Assembly (NCBI RefSeq): GCF_011045215.1
Contig: NZ_CP049201.1
Length of the DNA: 64,000 nt
DNA from: Escherichia coli
GTDB taxonomy: Bacteria > Pseudomonadota > Gammaproteobacteria > Enterobacterales > Enterobacteriaceae
Reading direction: 5' to 3' (one strand)
A program made the position numbers and the translations under genes. Below the pieces are notes generated by a model. That model did no database searches. It was not told the origin of the DNA and was given only the letters and a program-made list of their open reading frames with translations. Of this stretch, positions 9,174-43,438 are shown one piece after another; the stretch's first letter is position 1, and every line of letters starts with the position of its first letter.

Positions 9174-9256
9174 CCCAGAGGTATTGATAGGTGAAGTCAA
9201 CTTCGGGTTGAGCACATGAATTACACCAGCCTGCGCAGATGCGCAGGTTTTTTTTT
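9174..9256 (+). ncRNA. omrB: OmrB small RNA (RygB)
   Basis: Begins CCCAGAGGTATTGATAGGTGAAG, ends in hairpin CCTGCGCAGATGCGCAGG plus T9; matches my recollection of OmrB; located between galR and aas. Confidence 0.8.
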
Positions 9257-9370
9257 GCCGGTCATCAATCTGTAACAGTAACCGACAATTTACACACCTC
9301 GTTGCATTTCCCTTCATTCCTTTGCGTTTTCTCGCTGGCGAAGAGTCGTCGTGCAGACCACAATCAAGAT

Positions 9371-9458
9371 CCCAGAGGTATTGATTGGTGAGATTATTCG
9401 GTACGCTCTTCGTACCCTGTCTCTTGCACCAACCTGCGCGGATGCGCAGGTTTTTTTT
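9371..9458 (+). ncRNA. omrA: OmrA small RNA (RygA)
   Basis: Begins CCCAGAGGTATTGATTGGTGAGATTATTCGG, ends in hairpin CCTGCGCGGATGCGCAGG plus T8; paralogue of omrB about 200 bp downstream. Confidence 0.8.
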
Positions 9459-9524
9459 CGCACCTAATTTACTGTCGCTCGCGTTCTTTATCTCGTGTAA
9501 TCTCCCTCCATTCGCTTTTACTGA

Positions 9525-26100: not shown

Positions 26101-26501
26101 GCGGTGGTAATGGTGAAAGTCGCCTTTTTCTACGCAAAGACGGCGAGTGGCGTTTTCCGCCGCTTGCAGCCGAACAGGCTTTGCATTACCTCTCACAACT
26201 GATTGAGGGGTATCGTGAAGGGATGTCCGCGCCATTGCTGGTGTTACCTGAAAGTGGCGGCGCGTGGCTAAAAACCTGTTATGACGCGCAAAACGATGCC
26301 ATGCTGGATGACGATTCCACGTTGCAAAAAGCCCGTACGAAATTCCTTCAGGCTTACGAAGGCAACATGATGGTGCGTGGCGAAGGTGATGATATCTGGT
26401 ATCAACGGCTCTGGCGGCAATTAACACCAGAGACAATGGAGGCCATCGTTGAACAGTCGCAACGTTTCCTGTTACCGCTGTTTCGCTTTAATCAGTCATG
26501 A
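23133..26501 (+). CDS. recC: exodeoxyribonuclease V gamma subunit
   Basis: 1122-aa ORF, N-terminus MLRVYHSNRLDVL. Confidence 0.97.
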   Translation: MLRVYHSNRLDVLEALMEFIVERERLDDPFEPEMILVQSTGMAQWLQMTLSQKFGIAANIDFPLPASFIWDMFVRVLPEIPKESAFNKQSMSWKLMTLLPQLLNREDFTLLRHYLTDDSDKRKLFQLSSKAADLFDQYLVYRPDWLAQWETGHLVEGLGEAQAWQAPLWKALVEYTHELGQPRWHRANLYQRFIETLESATTCPPGLPSRVFICGISALPPVYLQALQALGKHIEIHLLFTNPCRYYWGDIKDPAYLAKLLTRQRRHSFEDRELPLFRDRENAGQLFNSDGEQDVGNPLLASWGKLGRDYIYLLSDLESSQELDAFVDVTPDNLLHNIQSDILELENRAVAGVNIEEFSRSDNKRPLDPLDSSITFHVCHSPQREVEVLHDRLLAMLEEDPTLTPRDIIVMVADIDSYSPFIQAVFGSAPADRYLPYAISDRRARQSHPVLEAFISLLSLPDSRFVSEDVLALLDVPVLAARFDITEEGLRYLRQWVNESGIRWGIDDDNVRELELPATGQHTWRFGLTRMLLGYAMESAQGEWQSVLPYDESSGLIAELVGHLASLLMQLNIWRRGLAQERPLEEWLPVCRDMLNAFFLPDAETEAAMTLIEQQWQAIIAEGLGAQYGDAVPLSLLRDELAQRLDQERISQRFLAGPVNICTLMPMRSIPFKVVCLLGMNDGVYPRQLAPLGFDLMSQKPKRGDRSRRDDDRYLFLEALISAQQKLYISYIGRSIQDNSERFPSVLVQELIDYIGQSHYLPGDEALNCDESEARVKAHLTCLHTRMPFDPQNYQPGERQSYAREWLPAASQAGKAHSEFVQPLPFTLPETVPLETLQRFWAHPVRAFFQMRLQVNFRTEDSEIPDTEPFILEGLSRYQINQQLLNALVEQDDAERLFRRFRAAGDLPYGAFGEIFWETQCQEMQQLADRVIACRQPGQSMEIDLACNGVQITGWLPQVQPDGLLRWRPSLLSVAQGMQLWLEHLVYCASGGNGESRLFLRKDGEWRFPPLAAEQALHYLSQLIEGYREGMSAPLLVLPESGGAWLKTCYDAQNDAMLDDDSTLQKARTKFLQAYEGNMMVRGEGDDIWYQRLWRQLTPETMEAIVEQSQRFLLPLFRFNQS

Positions 26502-26676
26502 GTGCTGTATAAAAATTGCGCAATCTATCCGCTTACTTTATGATGCGCACCAGTCACGGACTGATGGTTATATAAACATAGGCTGACTCGTGCAGCACAA
26601 GATTAAATTCTGGCAGATCATTTGCGTTAACCTGTTGAATCTGTCCAGAAAATAAAGTTGATTATGAGGTCCGTGA

Positions 26677-29565
26677 ATGCCCCGCAGCACCTGGTTCAAA
26701 GCATTATTGTTGTTTGTTGCCCTCTGGGCACCATTAAGTCAGGCAGAAACGGGATGGCAGCCGATTCAGGAAACCATCCGTAAAAGTGATAAAGATAACC
26801 GCCAGTATCAGGCTATACGTCTGGATAACGGTATGGTGGTCTTGCTGGTTTCTGATCCGCAGGCAGTTAAATCGCTATCGGCGCTGGTGGTGCCCGTTGG
26901 GTCGCTGGAAGATCCCGAGGCGTACCAGGGGCTGGCACATTACCTTGAACATATGAGTCTGATGGGGTCGAAAAAGTACCCGCAGGCTGACAGTCTGGCC
27001 GAATATCTCAAAATGCACGGCGGTAGTCACAATGCCAGCACTGCGCCGTATCGCACGGCTTTCTATCTGGAAGTTGAGAACGACGCCTTGCCCGGTGCGG
27101 TAGACCGCCTGGCCGATGCTATTGCAGAACCCTTGCTCGACAAGAAATACGCCGAACGTGAGCGTAATGCAGTGAACGCTGAATTAACCATGGCGCGTAC
27201 GCGTGACGGGATGCGCATGGCACAGGTCAGCGCAGAAACCATTAACCCGGCACACCCCGGTTCAAAGTTTTCTGGTGGTAACCTCGAAACTTTAAGCGAC
27301 AAACCTGGTAATCCGGTGCAGCAGGCGCTGAAAGATTTCCACGAGAAGTACTATTCCGCCAATTTGATGAAGGCGGTTATTTACAGTAATAAACCGCTGC
27401 CGGAGTTGGCAAAAATGGCGGCGGACACCTTTGGTCGCGTGCCGAACAAAGAGAGCAAAAAACCGGAAATCACCGTGCCGGTAGTCACCGACGCGCAAAA
27501 GGGCATTATCATTCATTACGTCCCAGCGCTGCCGCGTAAAGTTCTGCGCGTTGAGTTTCGCATCGATAACAACTCAGCGAAGTTCCGCAGTAAAACGGAT
27601 GAATTGATTACCTATCTGATTGGTAATCGCAGCCCAGGTACACTTTCTGACTGGCTGCAAAAGCAGGGATTAGTTGAGGGCATTAGCGCCAACTCCGATC
27701 CTATCGTCAACGGCAACAGCGGTGTATTAGCGATCTCTGCGTCTTTAACCGATAAAGGTCTGGCGAATCGCGATCAGGTTGTGGCGGCCATTTTTAGCTA
27801 CCTCAATCTGTTACGTGAAAAAGGGATCGATAAACAATACTTCGATGAACTGGCGAATGTGCTGGATATCGACTTCCGTTATCCGTCGATCACCCGTGAT
27901 ATGGATTACGTCGAATGGCTGGCAGATACCATGATTCGCGTTCCTGTTGAGCATACGCTGGATGCAGTCAATATTGCCGATCGGTACGATGCTAAAGCAG
28001 TAAAGGAACGTCTGGCGATGATGACGCCGCAGAATGCGCGTATCTGGTATATCAGCTCGAAAGAGCCGCACAATAAAACGGCTTATTTTGTCGATGCGCC
28101 GTATCAGGTCGATAAAATTAGCGCACAAACTTTCGCTAACTGGCAGCAAAAAGCTGCCAATATTGCGCTCTCCTTACCGGAGCTTAACCCCTATATTCCT
28201 GACGATTTCTCGCTGATTAAGTCAGAGAAGAAATATGACCATCCAGAGCTGATTGTTGATGAGTCGAATCTGCGCGTGGTGTATGCGCCAAGCCGTTATT
28301 TTGCCAGCGAGCCCAAAGCTGATGTCAGCCTGATTTTGCGTAATCCGAAAGCCATGGACAGCGCCCGCAATCAGGTGATGTTTGCGCTCAATGATTATCT
28401 CGCAGGGCTGGCGCTTGATCAGTTAAGCAACCAGGCGTCGGTTGGTGGCATAAGTTTTTCCACCAACGCTAACAACGGCCTTATGGTTAATGCCAATGGT
28501 TACACCCAGCGCCTGCCGCAGCTGTTCCAGGCATTGCTCGAGGGGTACTTTAGCTATACCGCTACGGAAGATCAGCTTGAGCAGGCGAAGTCCTGGTATA
28601 ACCAGATGATGGATTCCGCAGAAAAGGGCAAAGCGTTCGAGCAGGCGATTATGCCCGCGCAGATGCTCTCGCAAGTGCCGTACTTCTCGCGAGATGAACG
28701 GCGCAAAATTTTGCCCTCCATCACTTTGAAAGAGGTGCTGGCCTATCGCGACGGCTTAAAATCAGGGGCTCGACCAGAGTTTATGGTTATCGGCAACATG
28801 ACCGAGGCCCAGGCAACAACGCTGGCACGCGATGTGCAAAAACAGTTGGGCGCTGATGGTTCAGAGTGGTGTCGAAACAAAGATGTAGTGGTCGATAAAA
28901 AACAATCCGTCATCTTTGAAAAAGCCGGTAACAGCACCGACTCCGCACTGGCAGCGGTATTTGTACCGACTGGCTACGATGAATACACCAGCTCAGCCTA
29001 TAGCTCTCTGTTGGGGCAGATCGTACAGCCGTGGTTCTACAATCAGTTGCGTACCGAAGAACAGTTGGGCTATGCCGTGTTTGCGTTTCCAATGAGCGTG
29101 GGGCGTCAGTGGGGCATGGGCTTCCTTTTGCAAAGCAATGATAAACAGCCTTCATTCTTGTGGGAGCGTTACAAGGCGTTTTTCCCAACCGCAGAGGCAA
29201 AATTGCGGGCGATGAAGCCAGAAGAGTTTGCGCAAATCCAGCAGGCGGTAATTACCCAGATGCTGCAGGCACCGCAAACGCTCGGCGAAGAAGCATCGAA
29301 GTTAAGTAAAGATTTCGATCGCGGCAATATGCGCTTCGATTCGCGTGATAAAATCATGGCCCAGATAAAACTGCTGACGCCGCAAAAACTTGCTGATTTC
29401 TTCCATCAGGCGGTGGTCGAGCCGCAAGGCATGGCTATTCTGTCGCAGATTTCCGGCAGCCAGAACGGGAAAGCCGAATATGTGCATCCTGAAGGCTGGA
29501 AAGTGTGGGAGAACGTCAGCGCGTTGCAGCAAACAATGCCCCTGATGAGTGAAAAGAATGAGTGA
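26677..29565 (+). CDS. ptrA: periplasmic protease III (pitrilysin, M16 metallopeptidase)
   Basis: 962-aa ORF with signal peptide and HYLEH zinc motif. Confidence 0.96.
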   Translation: MPRSTWFKALLLFVALWAPLSQAETGWQPIQETIRKSDKDNRQYQAIRLDNGMVVLLVSDPQAVKSLSALVVPVGSLEDPEAYQGLAHYLEHMSLMGSKKYPQADSLAEYLKMHGGSHNASTAPYRTAFYLEVENDALPGAVDRLADAIAEPLLDKKYAERERNAVNAELTMARTRDGMRMAQVSAETINPAHPGSKFSGGNLETLSDKPGNPVQQALKDFHEKYYSANLMKAVIYSNKPLPELAKMAADTFGRVPNKESKKPEITVPVVTDAQKGIIIHYVPALPRKVLRVEFRIDNNSAKFRSKTDELITYLIGNRSPGTLSDWLQKQGLVEGISANSDPIVNGNSGVLAISASLTDKGLANRDQVVAAIFSYLNLLREKGIDKQYFDELANVLDIDFRYPSITRDMDYVEWLADTMIRVPVEHTLDAVNIADRYDAKAVKERLAMMTPQNARIWYISSKEPHNKTAYFVDAPYQVDKISAQTFANWQQKAANIALSLPELNPYIPDDFSLIKSEKKYDHPELIVDESNLRVVYAPSRYFASEPKADVSLILRNPKAMDSARNQVMFALNDYLAGLALDQLSNQASVGGISFSTNANNGLMVNANGYTQRLPQLFQALLEGYFSYTATEDQLEQAKSWYNQMMDSAEKGKAFEQAIMPAQMLSQVPYFSRDERRKILPSITLKEVLAYRDGLKSGARPEFMVIGNMTEAQATTLARDVQKQLGADGSEWCRNKDVVVDKKQSVIFEKAGNSTDSALAAVFVPTGYDEYTSSAYSSLLGQIVQPWFYNQLRTEEQLGYAVFAFPMSVGRQWGMGFLLQSNDKQPSFLWERYKAFFPTAEAKLRAMKPEEFAQIQQAVITQMLQAPQTLGEEASKLSKDFDRGNMRFDSRDKIMAQIKLLTPQKLADFFHQAVVEPQGMAILSQISGSQNGKAEYVHPEGWKVWENVSALQQTMPLMSEKNE

Positions 29566-32500
29566 TGTCGCCGAGACACTAGATCCTTTGCGCTTGCCCT
29601 TACAGGGCGAGCGCCTGATTGAAGCCTCTGCCGGCACAGGCAAAACCTTTACGATTGCGGCGCTCTATTTGCGCCTGTTACTTGGACTAGGCGGTTCCGC
29701 CGCCTTTCCCCGCCCGCTGACCGTTGAAGAACTGCTGGTGGTCACCTTTACCGAGGCTGCCACGGCAGAATTGCGCGGTCGTATCCGTAGCAATATCCAC
29801 GAGTTGCGCATCGCCTGTCTGCGTGAAACCACCGACAATCCACTGTACGAACGCCTGCTGGAAGAGATCGACGATAAAGCGCAAGCCGCGCAGTGGTTGT
29901 TGTTAGCCGAACGGCAGATGGATGAAGCGGCAGTCTTTACTATTCACGGCTTTTGCCAGCGCATGCTCAACCTGAATGCCTTTGAATCCGGCATGCTGTT
30001 TGAGCAGCAGCTGATTGAAGATGAGTCTCTGCTACGCTACCAGGCCTGCGCCGATTTCTGGCGTCGCCACTGCTACCCGCTGCCGCGTGAAATAGCCCAG
30101 GTCGTCTTTGAAACCTGGAAAGGGCCGCAGGCGTTGCTGCGCGATATTAATCGTTATCTGCAAGGCGAAGCGCCGGTTATCAAAGCACCGCCGCCCGATG
30201 ATGAAACGCTGGCTTCCCGTCACGCGCAAATTGTGGCGCGTATTGATACGGTAAAACAGCAGTGGCGCGACGCAGTGGGTGAACTGGATGCGCTGATCGA
30301 ATCTTCTGGTATTGATCGACGCAAGTTTAACCGTAGCAATCAGGCTAAATGGATCGACAAGATCAGCGCCTGGGCAGAAGAAGAGACAAACAGTTATCAG
30401 TTGCCGGAGTCGCTGGAAAAATTCTCCCAGCGTTTCTTAGAAGATCGCACGAAGGCCGGGGGGGAAACCCCGCGACATCCACTGTTTGAGGCGATCGATC
30501 AACTGCTTGCAGAACCATTGTCGATCCGCGATCTGGTGATCACCCGCGCATTGGCTGAGATCCGCGAAACAGTAGCGCGTGAGAAACGCCGCCGTGGCGA
30601 ATTGGGTTTTGATGACATGTTAAGTCGGCTCGATTCCGCGCTGCGTAGCGAAAGCGGTGAGGTGTTGGCAGCGGCGATCCGTACGCGATTCCCGGTGGCA
30701 ATGATCGATGAATTTCAGGATACCGACCCCCAGCAGTACCGAATTTTTCGCCGTATCTGGTACCATCAGCTGGAAACCGCATTGTTGCTAATTGGCGACC
30801 CGAAGCAGGCCATATATGCTTTCCGGGGTGCGGATATCTTCACTTATATGAAGGCGCGTAGCGAAGTTCACGCCCACTACACTTTAGACATCAACTGGCG
30901 TTCCGCACCAGGAATGGTGAACAGTGTGAACAAGCTTTTCAGCCAGACTGATGACGCGTTCATGTTTCGCGAAATACCGTTTATTCCAGTGAAATCAGCC
31001 GGGAAGAATCAGGCGTTACGTTTTGTATTTAAAGGTGAAACGCAGCCTGCGATGAAAATGTGGCTGATGGAAGGCGAAAGCTGCGGCGTTGGCGACTATC
31101 AAAGTACCATGGCGCAGGTATGTGCTGCGCAAATCCGCGACTGGCTACAAGCCGGACAGCGGGGCGAAGCGTTGCTGATGAACGGCGACGAAGCGCGTTC
31201 GGTGCGTGCTTCGGACATCAGCGTGCTGGTGCGCAGCCGCCAGGAGGCCGCTCAGGTGCGCGATGCCTTAACGCTGCTGGAAATCCCTTCCGTTTACCTT
31301 TCGAACCGCGACAGTGTTTTTGAAACTCTGGAAGCGCAGGAAATGCTTTGGTTGTTGCAGGCGGTGATGACGCCCGAACGTGAGAACACCCTGCGCAGTG
31401 CGCTGGCAACGTCAATGATGGGGCTGAATGCGCTGGATATTGAAACGCTGAACAATGACGAACATGCGTGGGATGCGGTAGTTGAAGAGTTCGATGGTTA
31501 TCGGCAAATCTGGCGCAAACGTGGCGTTATGCCGATGCTGCGGGCGCTGATGTCGGCGCGTAACATTGCAGAAAACTTGCTGGCAACGGCAGGCGGTGAG
31601 CGGCGTCTTACCGATATCTTGCATATCAGCGAACTGCTACAAGAAGCCGGAACGCAGCTGGAAAGTGAACATGCGCTGGTACGCTGGTTATCGCAACATA
31701 TCCTCGAGCCAGACAGTAATGCCTCCAGCCAACAAATGCGCCTCGAAAGTGATAAACATCTGGTGCAGATTGTCACGATCCATAAATCGAAAGGGCTGGA
31801 ATATCCGCTTGTCTGGTTGCCATTTATTACCAATTTCCGCGTCCAGGATCAGGCGTTTTATCACGATCGCCACTCGTTTGAGGCTGTTCTGGATCTTAAC
31901 GCTGCGCCAGAAAGTGTCGATCTCGCGGAGGCCGAACGTCTGGCGGAAGATCTGCGTTTGCTTTACGTGGCGCTGACGCGTTCGGTTTGGCATTGCAGTC
32001 TCGGCGTTGCACCGCTGGTGCGCCGTCGTGGCGATAAAAAAGGTGACACCGACGTCCACCAAAGTGCGCTCGGGCGTTTGCTGCAAAAAGGGGAACCGCA
32101 AGATGCGGCAGGGCTTCGCACCTGTATTGAAGCGTTATGCGATGATGATATTGCCTGGCAAACGGCACAAACTGGTGATAACCAGCCCTGGCAGGTTAAT
32201 GATGTTTTAACTGCAGAACTGAATGCGAGGACGCTACAACGATTGCCCGGCGATAACTGGCGTGTCACCAGCTACTCCGGTTTGCAGCAGCGTGGTCACG
32301 GTATCGCTCAGGATCTGATGCCACGGCTGGATGTTGATGCCGCAGGCGTGGTCAGCGTCGTTGAAGAACCGACGTTAACACCGCATCAATTCCCGCGCGG
32401 TGCGTCACCGGGGACATTCTTGCACAGTTTGTTTGAAGACCTCGATTTTACCCAGCCGGTTGACCCGAACTGGGTGCGGGAAAAACTGGAACTCGGCGGC

Positions 32501-33100
32501 TTTGAATCGCAGTGGGAACCGGTATTGACCGAGTGGATCACGGCTGTCCTCCAGGCACCTCTCAATGAAACCGGCGTAAGCCTGAGTCAACTTTCCGCCC
32601 GCAATAAACAGGTGGAGATGGAGTTTTATCTGCCGATTAGTGAACCGCTTATCGCCAGTCAGCTTGATACGTTAATCCGCCAGTTTGACCCGCTATCCGC
32701 AGGCTGCCCGCCGCTGGAGTTCATGCAGGTACGTGGCATGTTAAAAGGCTTTATCGACCTGGTGTTCCGCCACGAAGGGCGTTATTACCTGCTCGACTAT
32801 AAATCCAACTGGTTGGGTGAAGACAGTTCGGCTTACACCCAACAGGCTATGGCAGCGGCAATGCAGGTACACCGCTATGATCTGCAATATCAGCTTTATA
32901 CCCTGGCGCTGCATCGTTATCTGCGCCATCGCATTGCTGATTACGACTATGAGCGCCACTTTGGCGGCGTTATTTATCTGTTCCTGCGTGGCGTTGATAA
33001 AGAACATCCGCAACAGGGGATTTACACAACCCGACCCAACGCCGGGTTGATTGCCCTGATGGATGAGATGTTTGCCGGTATGACCCTGGAGGAGGCGTAA
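29558..33100 (+). CDS. recB: exodeoxyribonuclease V beta subunit (helicase-nuclease)
   Basis: ORF trimmed to [13 protein letters not shown] (1180 aa); Walker A AGTGKTFT; overlaps ptrA by 8 nt. Confidence 0.97.
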
Positions 33101-34926
33101 TGAAATTGCAAAAGCAATTACTGGAAGCTGTGGAGCACAAACAGCTACGCCCGCTGGATGTGCAATTTGCCCTGACCGTGGCGGGAGATGAACATCCTGC
33201 CGTCACCATCGCGGCGGCACTGTTAAGTCATGATGCCGGAGAGGGACACGTTTGTTTGCCGCTTTCACGACTGGAAAATAACGAGGCGTCGCATCCGCTG
33301 TTGGCGACCTGTGTCAGTGAAATCGGTGAGCTACAAAATTGGGAAGAATGCTTGTTGGCTTCTCAAGCGGTCAGCAGGGGAGATGAACCCACGCCGATGA
33401 TCCTCTGTGGCGATCGTCTTTATTTGAATCGCATGTGGTGTAACGAGCGGACGGTAGCGCGCTTCTTCAATGAGGTGAATCATGCCATCGAGGTTGATGA
33501 AGCTCTACTGGCGCAAACCCTGGACAAACTTTTTCCAGTAAGCGATGAAATTAACTGGCAAAAAGTTGCAGCGGCAGTGGCGCTGACGCGGCGGATCTCG
33601 GTGATTTCCGGCGGCCCAGGCACCGGTAAAACGACCACCGTGGCGAAGTTGCTGGCAGCGTTAATTCAAATGGCCGACGGCGAACGCTGCCGTATCCGTC
33701 TGGCTGCACCAACGGGTAAAGCTGCCGCGCGCTTAACCGAATCTCTCGGCAAGGCTTTGCGACAGTTACCGCTGACCAATGAACAAAAGAAACGCATTCC
33801 GGAAGATGCCAGCACTTTGCACCGATTGCTGGGCGCGCAGCCGGGTAGCCAGCGTTTACGTCATCATGCCGGTAACCCGCTGCATCTTGATGTGCTGGTG
33901 GTAGATGAAGCGTCAATGATCGATCTGCCTATGATGTCGAGACTGATCGACGCCTTGCCAGATCATGCGCGAGTGATCTTTCTCGGCGATCGTGATCAAC
34001 TGGCCTCGGTTGAGGCTGGGGCTGTGCTGGGCGATATCTGCGCTTATGCCAACGCGGGCTTTACCGCCGAGCGTGCCAGGCAGCTAAGCCGCCTGACGGG
34101 GACTCACGTTCCGGCTGGAACTGGCACAGAAGCGGCATCTTTGCGCGACAGTCTCTGCCTGCTGCAAAAAAGCTATCGTTTCGGCAGCGATTCTGGCATT
34201 GGTCAGTTAGCTGCGGCGATCAACCGTGGTGATAAAACGGCAGTGAAAACCGTTTTTCAGCAGGATTTTACTGATATCGAAAAACGGCTTTTACAGAGCG
34301 GCGAAGATTATATTGCGATGCTTGAGGAAGCTCTTGCGGGTTATGGACGTTATCTGGATCTGCTGCAAGCGCGTGCCGAGCCGGATTTAATCATTCAGGC
34401 GTTCAATGAGTACCAACTTTTGTGCGCCCTGCGGGAAGGGCCATTTGGCGTGGCTGGACTGAATGAGCGAATTGAGCAGTTTATGCAACAGAAGCGCAAA
34501 ATTCATCGTAATCCGCACTCTCGTTGGTACGAAGGCCGACCGGTGATGATTGCCCGTAATGACAGCGCGCTTGGGTTGTTTAATGGCGATATCGGTATTG
34601 CGCTGGATCGCGGGCAGGGGACGCGCGTCTGGTTTGCGATGCCGGACGGCAATATTAAGTCTGTGCAACCGAGTCGTTTGCCAGAGCACGAAACTACGTG
34701 GGCGATGACGGTACATAAATCGCAGGGATCGGAGTTCGACCATGCGGCGTTGATTTTGCTGAGCCAACGCACGCCGGTAGTAACGCGAGAGCTGGTTTAT
34801 ACCGCGGTGACCCGCGCGCGTCGCCGTCTGTCGCTGTATGCCGATGAGCGCATATTAAGTGCGGCAATCGCCACTCGTACTGAGCGGCGCAGTGGTCTGG
34901 CGGCGTTGTTTAGTTCACGGGAATAA
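33100..34926 (+). CDS. recD: exodeoxyribonuclease V alpha subunit
   Basis: 608-aa ORF, start overlaps recB stop (TAATG); Walker [11 protein letters not shown]. Confidence 0.97.
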
Positions 34927-34934
34927 ACGTAATT

Positions 34935-35056
34935 GCCGGATGCGACGCACGAGTGTTACGCCTGCCGCATCCGGCGATTTTCGTCGCTTACCCTAAATCC
35001 GCCATCAACATCTTCGATTTTACGTAGGTCGGATAAGGCGTCCACGCCGCATCCGA
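34935..35056. repeat. REP/BIME cluster between recD and argA
   Basis: Two REP-like palindromic units (GCCGGATGCGACGC...GCATCCGGC and GTAGGTCGGATAAGGCGTCCACGCCGCATCCGAC) and a roughly 50-bp direct repeat GATTTTCGTCGCTTACCCTAAATCCGCCAT. Confidence 0.7.
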
Positions 35057-35069
35057 CGATTTTCGTCGC

Positions 35070-36401
35070 TTACCCTAAATCCGCCATTAACACTTTGGAT
35101 TTACGCTGGTAGTTGTACAACTGCTTTTTGCTTTCGGGCAGTAAATCAATATCCACTGGGGTAAATCCACGTTCCTGGAACCAGTGAATACTGCGCGTGG
35201 TCAGCACAAACAATTTGCTTAAGCCGCTCTGCTTCGCCTGAGCGGCAATGCGTTCCAGCAGAACTTCACCCCTTGATGAACTGCGGTAATCCGGGTGAAC
35301 TGCCACACAGGCCATTTCCCCAATCTTCTCTTCCGGGAACGGATAGAGCGCGGCGCAGGCAATAGTCGTGTTATCGCGCTGAATAATGGTGAATTTGTCG
35401 ATTTCCATCTCCAGCTGCTCGCGAGAACGGCGTACCAGAATACCTTGCTGCTCCAGCGGGCGAATCAACTCCAGAATACCGCCAATATCGTTGATTGTTG
35501 CGCGACGAATCTGCTCGGCGCTTTCCATCACAATCTGCGTACCGATACCGTCGCGTGAGAACAACTCTTGCAACAGCGCGCCATCTTCCTGATAACTGAT
35601 TAAATGACAGCGACGCACGCCGCTGCGGCAGGCTTTCACTGCGCCACGCAAAAAGCGCACCGTACCGGAGTTGTAATCACCTTTCTCTTCCTGGGCTTCT
35701 ACCCGCGCTTGCGCTTCGTTAGGGAAAAGTTCGGAGACAATATCACCGTCGTCATTAGTGACGCCCTGGGAAGAGCAAAAACCAATCATCTTTTCAGCTT
35801 TCAGTTTGATGGCCAGTTGAGTGGCAATCTCTTCCGAGGTCAGATTAAAGCTCTCGCCAGTGACTGAAACAGCGACCGGCCCCATTAGCACTATTGCACC
35901 GCTGTCCAGTTGACGATGGATCGCGTCTTCATCAATCCGCCGGATACGCCCGCTATGGCAGTAATCCACGCCGTCATCGACGCCCAGCGGCTGGGCAATA
36001 ATAAAATTGCCACTGACGACGTTGATATGCGCGCCCTGCAGCGGCGTGTTATTGAGACTCATCGACAGGCGAGCCGTAATATCCAGTTGCAATGTTCCCG
36101 CAGCCTGCTTCACCAGTTCCAGTGTTTTGGCGTCGGTCACACGTATATTCTTGTGATACAGCGGTTCGTGGTGATGCGCAGCCAGATTTGCGTCGATCTG
36201 CGGACGTGCGCCATAGACCACCACCAGACGGATGCCGAGGCTGTGCAACAACCCGATATCATTAACGATACTGGAGAAATTCTCATGCTCAATGGCTTCA
36301 CCGCCGAGCATGATGACAAACGTTTTTCCCCGGTGGGTATTGATATAGGGAACCGAATGGCGGAATCCCTCGACCAGCTCGGTTTTACGTTCCTTTACCA
36401 C
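35070..36401 (-). CDS. argA: N-acetylglutamate synthase
   Basis: ORF trimmed to the GTG start giving [20 protein letters not shown] (443 aa). Confidence 0.93.
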
Positions 36402-42524: not shown

Positions 42525-43232
42525 AAATATCCTCCGGCATAGCCGGAGGTTTTTCAAATGCGCCTATAAGGCTCTCTTACCAGCCGCGCCCTAACAGGCG
42601 CACACGATCTGACATTTGCATCCAACTTCGTTACTTACGGCCCGTAAACGGGCTGCCCGGATAGGGAATCGATAACTGCTCTCCCATTTCATCCTCTTCA
42701 AGCTGGTGCTTTATGTAATCCTGTATCTTCGCCGTGTTCTTACCCACCGTATCGACGTAGTACCCTCTGCACCAGAACTCCCTGTTCCTGTATTTGAATT
42801 TCAAATCCCCAAACTGCTCATAAAGCATCAGACTGCTTTTCCCTTTCAGATATCCCATAAAGCCGGATACGCTCATTTTGGGCGGGATCTCCACAAGCAT
42901 ATGGATATGATCTGCACAGCATTCAGCTTCAAGAATCCGTACGCTTTTCCACTCACACAGCTTTCTCAAAATACTGCCTATTGCTCTACGCTTCTCTCTG
43001 TAGAACACTTGTCTTCGGTATTTTGGCGCAAAAACTATGTGATATTTACAGTTCCATCGGGTGTGCGCTAAGCTCTTTTCGTTCCCCATTGGGACCCCCT
43101 TTTGATTTCTTGTTTGACACTTGCAGTTGCCAGACCGCAAGGTGTTTTAACAAATCAAAAGGGGTTTTAATAACTGGCTCAAAGCTGAAAGCTTTCCGGA
43201 ACCCCCAGCCTAGCTGGGGGTTTTCTGTGCAC
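42525..43232 (-). mobile_element. IS200 insertion sequence (IS200/IS605 family); ends approximate to within about 10 bp
   Basis: Encodes a 152-aa IS200-type Y1/HUH transposase; similar GC-rich subterminal hairpins at both ends (CCCCCAGC-CTA-GCTGGGGG at 43202-43220; CCTCCGGC-ATA-GCCGGAGG at 42531-42549); stem-loop sequestering the tnpA RBS; total about 708 bp. Confidence 0.85.
42631..43089 (-). CDS. tnpA: IS200 transposase TnpA (Y1 HUH transposase)
   Basis: MGNEKSLAHTRWNCKYHIVFAPKYRR...HIHMLVEIPP (HuH motif), 152 aa from the internal Met of the track ORF. Confidence 0.9.
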   Translation of the reverse strand: MGNEKSLAHTRWNCKYHIVFAPKYRRQVFYREKRRAIGSILRKLCEWKSVRILEAECCADHIHMLVEIPPKMSVSGFMGYLKGKSSLMLYEQFGDLKFKYRNREFWCRGYYVDTVGKNTAKIQDYIKHQLEEDEMGEQLSIPYPGSPFTGRK

Positions 43233-43438
43233 AAAAAAAAGCACCGCAATTAGGCGGTGCTACATTAATCACTATGGACAGACAGGGTAAATGTACAGGA
43301 AGTGAAAAAAGGTAGCTTTGCTACCATGGTCTGAATCGCAGACCAATTGCAAACACAACAACACAACATCACAACCGTAAGCCAAAAGTTCACCAGAACA
43401 CGCATTCCGATAAAACTTTTCGTTCCGGCTCAGGAAGT
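43233..43438 (-). ncRNA. gcvB: GcvB small RNA
   Basis: Minus strand reads ACTTCCTGAGCCGGAACGAAAAG...GTTGTGATGTTGTGTTGTTGTGTTTGCAATTGG...GCACCGCCTAATTGCGGTGCT plus T8; about 206 nt; divergent from gcvA. Confidence 0.9.

Follow-up and report, generated by a model that had tools for sequence, protein, structure and literature searches.

The locus studied here raises the question of how the spacer between two convergent genes of Escherichia coli came to hold a second, dead 3' end of one of them together with a complete repetitive extragenic palindrome (REP). We analysed a stretch of 64,000 nt of contig NZ_CP049201.1 (hereafter the window), in which recD (33100–34926, plus strand, 608 aa, stop codon TAA at 34924–34926, taken from the list of open reading frames (ORFs)) and argA (35070–36401, minus strand, 443 aa, intact in translation) converge on a recD–argA spacer of 143 nt (34927–35069). 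The identity of recD agrees with the annotation of matching E. coli records and with the Pfam RecD domains of the identical product. Our favoured interpretation, which we hold with middling confidence, is that the spacer carries the footprint of a single, lineage-specific, duplicative REP gain, for which a paralogous y-type REP would have served as template of a patch; the mechanism is inferred.

The spacer contains one direct-repeat family, of which the two copies (34964–35020 and 35046–35102) are 57 nt long, agree at 52 of 57 positions (91%) and start 82 nt apart. At the cost of one 1-nt indel, gapped local alignment lengthens the pair to 34964–35029 and 35046–35110. Without gaps, the highest direct-repeat score in the interval 34800–35250 was 47, compared with a mean of 9.7 (s.d. 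1.2, maximum 15) in 300 dinucleotide-preserving shuffles of that interval. The direct repeat is real and far above chance, and this self-comparison bears out the initial annotation, which had proposed a repeat extending beyond the REP cores. The repeat, initially put at roughly 50 bp, starts two bases earlier (GCCGCATCC...) and runs 9 nt further than described. Only two pairs of local direct repeats of at least 30 nt occur in the whole window, this one and the ordinary common 3' end (9221–9258 and 9424–9461) of the OmrA and OmrB small RNA (sRNA) genes (9174–9255 and 9371–9458).

Copy 2 (35046–35102) is the functional one and consists of the right arm of the complete REP, a linker of 12 nt, the real argA stop codon (35070–35072) and the last 10 argA codons (35073–35102), not the last five as initially annotated; with the gapped extension about 12 codons are included. 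Copy 1 (34964–35020) has the same layout, with a REP head, the 12-nt linker, a dead argA stop codon (34988–34990) and the last 10 codons, and is a non-coding, functionless relic. The right arm of each of the two palindromes in the spacer is formed by the first 12 nt of one repeat copy. The copies differ within the REP head (G in the relic, A in copy 2), at a site that is polymorphic in E. coli, and within the live argA by a synonymous change of TTG to TTA. The last 12 nt of the relic, beside the junction, contain three clustered substitutions and one extra T (35018–35021). The changed bases at this junction also yield an ATG-initiated mini-ORF of seven codons (MLMADLG followed by a stop), which is not above chance. 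Both copies share a pair of single-nucleotide polymorphisms (SNPs), G...T (GATTTTCG...CCCT), that is present in 1 of 27 sampled single-copy alleles of the E. coli type and absent from the divergent strain SCPM-O-B-8794 described below. This common SNP pair indicates that both copies derive from one parental allele.

Relative to all single-copy alleles, the window contains 82 additional bases, namely the 57-nt repeat and 25 nt (35021–35045, plus strand; TACGTAGGTCGGATAAGGCGTCCAC) in which TAC and GTAG precede a y-type REP's left arm and loop. Together with the second copy of the resident REP head, the 25 nt form a complete REP (REP2), so that, as the initial annotation had it, the argA 3' end is duplicated together with a REP end: relative to the empty alleles, the gain beside argA makes a complete REP. 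From recD to argA the order is the old palindrome, the dead argA tail, the new complete REP and the real argA tail. An equally good parsing takes the gain as an entire REP (37 nt) bordered by a duplicated stretch of 45 nt, which begins exactly where the resident REP head has its foot. The only junction that can be located reads CCTACG↓TAAAAT on the argA strand, with the most parsimonious joint between G and T (ACG↓TAAA). The 25 nt were absent from all single-copy alleles examined, which points to a sequence brought in from another REP and, as they are new to the locus, excludes a plain tandem duplication or slippage. Slipped recombination, one of the origins initially suggested, can therefore not give this structure. 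The other suggestion, expansion of REPs or bacterial interspersed mosaic elements (BIMEs), holds insofar as the event is linked to a change in REP content, but simple BIME expansion cannot supply 25 new nucleotides. We also rejected a fold-back copy of the resident arm as the source, as this would give a perfect stem (GC) that lacks both the AA/GC mismatch and the GTAG.

REP2 (35024–35057, plus strand) is a complete canonical y-type REP that folds into a 7-bp stem, an AA/GC internal mismatch, a 4-bp stem and a 4-nt loop (TCCA), and is located 12 nt downstream of the argA stop codon. At the 5' foot of its hairpin it has GTAG (35024–35027), a tetranucleotide described as conserved in REPs (PMC3333891). 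The A of its right arm pairs with a T of the new left arm (GTCGG/CCGAC), while the relic head reads CCGGC. Matches of 34–35 nt to REP2 with one mismatch occur in 2,258 complete genomes, e.g. between artJ and artM and between ycfP and ndh. Two REP-like palindromes, as initially annotated, are indeed present, but only REP2 is a canonical REP. The other (REP1, 34935–34975) is a degenerate palindrome, a near-perfect inverted repeat of two facing REP heads (GCCGGATGCGACGC ... GCCGCATCCGGC) that folds as DNA with −18.5 kcal/mol (z −3.7) and lacks both a GTAG foot and a single complete REP consensus; the annotation of strain MG1655 has no REP feature at the recD–argA spacer. REP1 is the resident element and was found in every E. 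coli allele aligned or tabulated. The arrangement does not amount to a BIME, as it has one complete REP only (REP2), from which the degenerate palindrome is separated by a 45-nt relic tail. Neither is it an insertion sequence (IS) or a miniature inverted-repeat transposable element, as the insert of 25–37 nt has no ends beyond the REP palindrome. The repeat of 45–57 nt that flanks the insert begins exactly at the foot of the resident REP, unlike a short target duplication of fixed length.

We compared the locus with 5,426 complete RefSeq genomes of E. coli, of which 5,425 matched. In the E. coli records listed, the match to a 481-nt query that includes the spacer has a length of 399 or 419 nt, and among the spacers that were fetched the K-12 type measures 61 nt and the other type, present in strain GW-AmxH19, 81 nt, as opposed to 143 nt in the window. 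These single-copy spacers, from which one repeat copy is absent, again agree with the initial proposal. A 91-nt junction probe gave no megablast match with at least 80% coverage in complete E. coli genomes, only REP matches of 34–35 nt elsewhere, not one of which reached into the relic. The key comparisons were found by looking up exact protein sequences in public assemblies. Three further assemblies contain the 143-nt spacer, ERR3329057 with a single SNP and GCA_910665085.1 and GCA_009766375.1 with sequences identical to that of the window. The RecD variant of ERR3329057 occurs on six contigs, and all three of the loci fetched have the 143-nt spacer (3/3). In addition, one contig encoding the identical RecD stops precisely at position 42 of the repeat, where, past a common 31-mer, the copies first diverge, as is expected if both copies were present in that read set. 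We therefore rejected an assembly artefact, on the grounds of the three other assemblies and of this k-mer branch at the copies' first difference. It follows that the allele is real; it is fixed within a small lineage (at least four assemblies).

Two contigs encode an identical RecB, one from ERR3329057 with the 143-nt spacer and one from DRR064052 (L099) with a 61-nt empty site. With an empty site in so close a relative, the gain reads as derived and lineage-specific. The opposite polarity, in which the 143-nt form would be ancestral and the 61- and 81-nt forms would have arisen by deletion between the 57-nt repeats, is the least probable of the explanations considered. In its favour, recombination between the copies would give exactly the E. 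coli-type spacer, and strain SCPM-O-B-8794 shows a complete y REP here to be old within Escherichia. Against it, the long form was not found in the complete E. coli genomes, whatever their phylogroup, its carriers lie inside E. coli at 99.1–99.4% identity to ordinary strains, and an internal deletion in an old BIME is the simpler explanation of the E. coli-type palindrome.

The history of the resident palindrome can be read from three alleles. Strain SCPM-O-B-8794 (L018), labelled 'E. coli', is about 92% identical to the window, with about 8% divergence right up to the spacer, and is, at this identity, assigned by us to another Escherichia species despite its label. Its locus (2830–2910) contains the identical REP of 34 nt at 12 nt past the argA stop codon; a linker and a second, decayed REP come next, and the tail is not duplicated. 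The GW-AmxH19-type allele retains a recognisable z2-like REP and the head of a y REP only, and the K-12 type has a further deletion of 20 nt relative to it. Taken together, the three alleles indicate that the resident palindrome is the wreck of an old y/z2 BIME, and they suggest that a y/z2 BIME is ancestral at the recD–argA spacer in Escherichia. As judged from these alignments, the lineage of the window has regained the missing half of a y REP. The combination of a complete REP2 without the duplication, as in SCPM-O-B-8794, was found in none of the 5,425 E. coli records, in which the alignments stop inside the REP head, and REP2 adjoining the argA linker was likewise missing from the JGI metagenome contigs that were scanned. 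The loci of more distant relatives say little about ancestry. In a lineage with 85% RecD identity the spacer has 40 nt and one unrelated REP-like hairpin. In an E. fergusonii-type locus (L110, 3622–3706) recD is followed not by argA but by a FHIPEP (FlhA-like) gene, with a REP-like hairpin in the spacer.

The mechanism that we consider most likely is template switching during DNA synthesis at a hairpin-forming site. The parent allele would have been the usual E. coli spacer, with argA, 12 nt and the degenerate palindrome that contains the old y REP head arm. The growing strand would have left the argA tail at a microhomology of 2–3 nt (CG or ACG), copied a paralogous complete y REP (GTAG, left arm and loop; 25 nt), re-annealed via its 12–14-nt REP head to the resident head and copied the argA tail again, so that the 57 nt copied for the second time would extend from the resident REP head through the argA stop codon to codon −10. 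The clustered changes at the junction would be errors of the switch or later decay. Such a patch would explain the order of the parts, the match between the two arms of REP2, the differing relic head and the intact argA. The mutual complementarity of the REP2 arms, set beside the relic head, fits an arrival of REP2 as one unit. The 25 nt carry the GTAG and the canonical AA/GC mismatch, and the same REP subtype occurs at other loci with one mismatch. Polymerase stalling that depends on BIMEs is documented (PMC3333891), and gene tails captured beside REP arrays are also found elsewhere, at codA–cynR of K-12 and in the argA array of another genus (L087).

Several points weigh against a templated patch. 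No donor REP was found: the exact 34-nt REP2 was present in no complete E. coli genome, and no similar REP occurs elsewhere in the 64-kb window. The copies differ at 5 of 57 positions and by one indel, which is more than expected of a young event in a haplotype that is only about 0.9% diverged from other E. coli. The three differences clustered at the junction need an extra assumption, for example synthesis with errors or decay at a later time. Among 100,044 species-representative genomes, an exact search for the relic junction sequence (TTCGATTTTACGTAGGTCGGATAAGGCG) gave no match, and the 91-nt probe matched REPs only; no donor flank present in those collections therefore accounts for the clustered differences. 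At about 8% divergence, SCPM-O-B-8794 has the same REP at the same position, which could mean that the source was an orthologue and not a paralogue. To our knowledge, template switching between loci is rare, and we know of no demonstration of it for REPs.

The strongest competitor of a templated patch, although unlikely in our view, is an event catalysed by the tyrosine transposase associated with REPs (RAYT, TnpA_REP), in which the enzyme, bound to a functional y REP, would cut single-stranded DNA at two places, namely site II of the inverted REP (iREP; GACC↓TACG on the minus strand) and a C↓T within the tail of argA (AAC↓TACC). Transfer of the strand and extension from a primer would then have duplicated the tail, in line with the models of BIME amplification or integration by Ton-Hoang et al. 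Both the GTAG and the mismatch in the stem, which TnpA_REP needs for binding and cleavage (PMC3333891), are present in REP2, its minus-strand GACC↓TACG is an exact fit to the published site II consensus, and a CTAC with its C↓T is located in argA just upstream of the repeat (GTAG at 35109–35112, plus strand), where the argA sense strand contains AACTACCAGCGTAAATCC. TnpA_REP furthermore cleaves C↓T sites at distances of up to more than 400 nt from a REP, and Ton-Hoang et al. propose that fragments of flanking genes are captured in this way. The rule for TnpA_REP joints, however, is that the attacking 3' base is C and that cleavage is at C↓T (PMC3333891; PMC8266576), the sole C↓T close to the junction is that of GACC↓TACG, and a C↓T joint is obtained here only if the relic subsequently lost 4 nt (TAC[CAGC]GTAAA), the parsimonious joint being G↓T. 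The published amplification model gives a pure tandem duplication with the same REP in both units, whereas the distal unit here is the old degenerate palindrome. This palindrome has no GTAG, and the locus had no functional REP beforehand. In vivo activity of RAYTs is not established (PMC8266576; bioRxiv 10.64898/2026.03.23.713779). No RAYT gene was noticed in the window, for which no dedicated ORF screen was made; the one Y1 transposase noticed is that of an IS200 element, with 147.7 bits to transpos_IS200 and 32.2 bits to REP_Tyr_transpos (cut-off 80).

A more specific form of this proposal, which we regard as more doubtful still, is that a REP-bearing single strand produced or handled by TnpA_REP was joined at its GTAG/CTAC end and primed by its head on the resident half-REP, leaving the flank duplication of 45–57 nt. 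The locus would then be a before-and-after snapshot of REP acquisition in vivo. If this were true, and if long flank duplications at the feet of resident REPs were general, they would provide a searchable footprint of REP dissemination.

That a tandem duplication or slippage of about 82 nt came first, and that gene conversion then turned the junction palindrome into a canonical REP, is improbable. Tandem duplications of a gene tail with REPs do exist (200 nt, two copies, at codA–cynR; 252 nt, three copies, at the argA locus L087), and the 25-nt new segment has the length that an 82-nt tandem unit would place there. In our own comparison, however, the 25 nt agree with the sequence expected from such a unit at only about 4 of 23 positions. 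Homology for the conversion is available on one side only (12 nt), and no intermediate allele was found in the complete genomes or the sampled loci.

An unequal or illegitimate recombination with an incoming orthologous allele of the SCPM-O-B-8794 type, by which a foreign REP2 would have been joined to the resident argA tail, has very little probability. In that strain the identical 34-nt REP, preceded by CG on its 5' side, is placed 12 nt past the argA stop codon, and the combined recD 3' and argA haplotype of the window is rare, with at most 99.1% identity to any complete E. coli genome. The region itself reads as a recombination mosaic with breakpoints near the spacer. Sliding identity nevertheless revealed no tract like SCPM-O-B-8794 in argA or recD, with differences of about 8% right up to the spacer, and the first diagnostic SNP, 8 nt past REP2, is of the resident type as in the relic copy. 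As flanking SNPs of that strain are missing, both crossovers would need to be placed within the 34-nt REP or at its border.

A stable hairpin is located 12 nt after the argA stop codon both before and after the event. REPs between convergent genes have been reported as context-dependent barriers to decay or as partial Rho-dependent terminators (bioRxiv 10.64898/2026.03.23.713779), and the new REP probably acts as a putative mRNA-decay barrier or partial terminator for the convergent argA and recD transcripts. A terminator scan gave one weak terminator-like match (34963–34976, plus strand) and a promoter scan one sigma-70-like match at 9 of 12 positions (35044–35017, minus strand), neither of them above shuffle expectation. 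The promoter-like match consists of a TAAAAT, which arises from the extra A at the relic junction, and a TGGACG in the REP2 loop, and is directed towards recD. The argA gene is undamaged although the turnover of REPs reaches its coding end, because the tail is copied. Beyond the question of REP gain, the allele is a small, neutral-looking polymorphism with an unchanged ArgA. How REPs spread in vivo is unsettled (PMC8266576; bioRxiv 10.64898/2026.03.23.713779), and the natural data on this process are empty sites cleanly paired with filled ones in backgrounds that are nearly identical. The locus described here gives such a pair, in which the empty site, the filled site, the length of the duplication and one junction are each resolved to the base.

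In its surroundings, the window is affiliated with the E. coli complex, with its closest matches at 99.1–99.4% identity, and its ArgA is the commonest E. coli ArgA, the exact sequence of which occurs in 94,569 blocks of the assembly index. ERR3329057 differs from the window by 26 SNPs clustered in ptrA (26406–28138) and is almost identical elsewhere. DRR064052 is nearly identical to the window in recB (two SNPs from 29357 to 33777) and about 1.5% different from the middle of recD through argA (33778–36075). Relative to E. coli PapM-32-1, the window has an IS200-type insertion of about 705 nt (42528–43232) that encodes an IS200-family Y1 transposase (ORF 42634–43089, minus strand; 147.7 bits, cut-off 55) and contains a match to the IS200-derived sRNA family STnc490 (43099–43222). 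This insertion abuts the 3' end of the GcvB sRNA gene (43233–43438, minus strand), and the two BLAST blocks on either side share 6 nt in the reference.

A close counterpart among known systems is the codA–cynR spacer of E. coli K-12, for which the capture of a gene fragment by a BIME unit was described (Ton-Hoang et al. 2012, PMC3333891). In MG1655 (L119, 1477–1875) it consists of two copies of a 200-nt unit that are 97% identical and each contain a y iREP, a z2 REP, a hairpin and about 84 nt of the cynR tail, of which the tail in the first unit is dead. Like the recD–argA allele it is a spacer with REPs or a BIME between convergent genes that contains a second, dead gene 3' end, but it is a plain head-to-tail repeat with identical REP content, whereas the allele described here has unequal units and 25 foreign nucleotides. 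An independent capture of the argA tail beside REP-like palindromes is found in another genus, in Enterobacteriaceae bacterium MGYG-HGUT-00110 (L087, 2779–3534). There, a 252-nt unit that starts inside argA is present in three head-to-tail copies (94–99% identical), each with 52 nt of the argA 3' end including the stop codon and four REP-like palindromes, and the joint (...GGCCTACCCTAC followed by TGCTGTATAAC) comes directly after a CCTAC end. This is a plain tandem amplification of three near-identical copies with different REP types, unlike the window, in which the 25 nt (35021–35045) are new at the joint.

Differences in the copy number and the presence or absence of BIMEs between E. coli strains were reportedly described by Bachellier et al. 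in Genetics in 1997 (as cited in PMC3333891), and are treated by Ton-Hoang et al. (2012) as well. The recD–argA allele resembles such polymorphisms in that REP content is strain-specific at a fixed intergenic site with conserved flanking genes. In the classic cases, however, whole units are gained or lost, while here half a REP completes a resident half and the 57-nt duplication reaches into the coding region. With the system of RAYTs and REP doublets (REPINs) the window shares a REP2 that has all sequence features of a TnpA_REP substrate and a junction that abuts a GTAG/CTAC end, but it differs in having no REP doublet, no C↓T joint unless an extra assumption is made, and a long flank duplication. 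Single-strand transposition of the IS200/IS605 type yields no such flank duplication (PMC2817692). The capture of gene tails linked to REPs is thus already known from codA–cynR, and what is new at the recD–argA spacer is that the units are unequal and include sequence from another REP.

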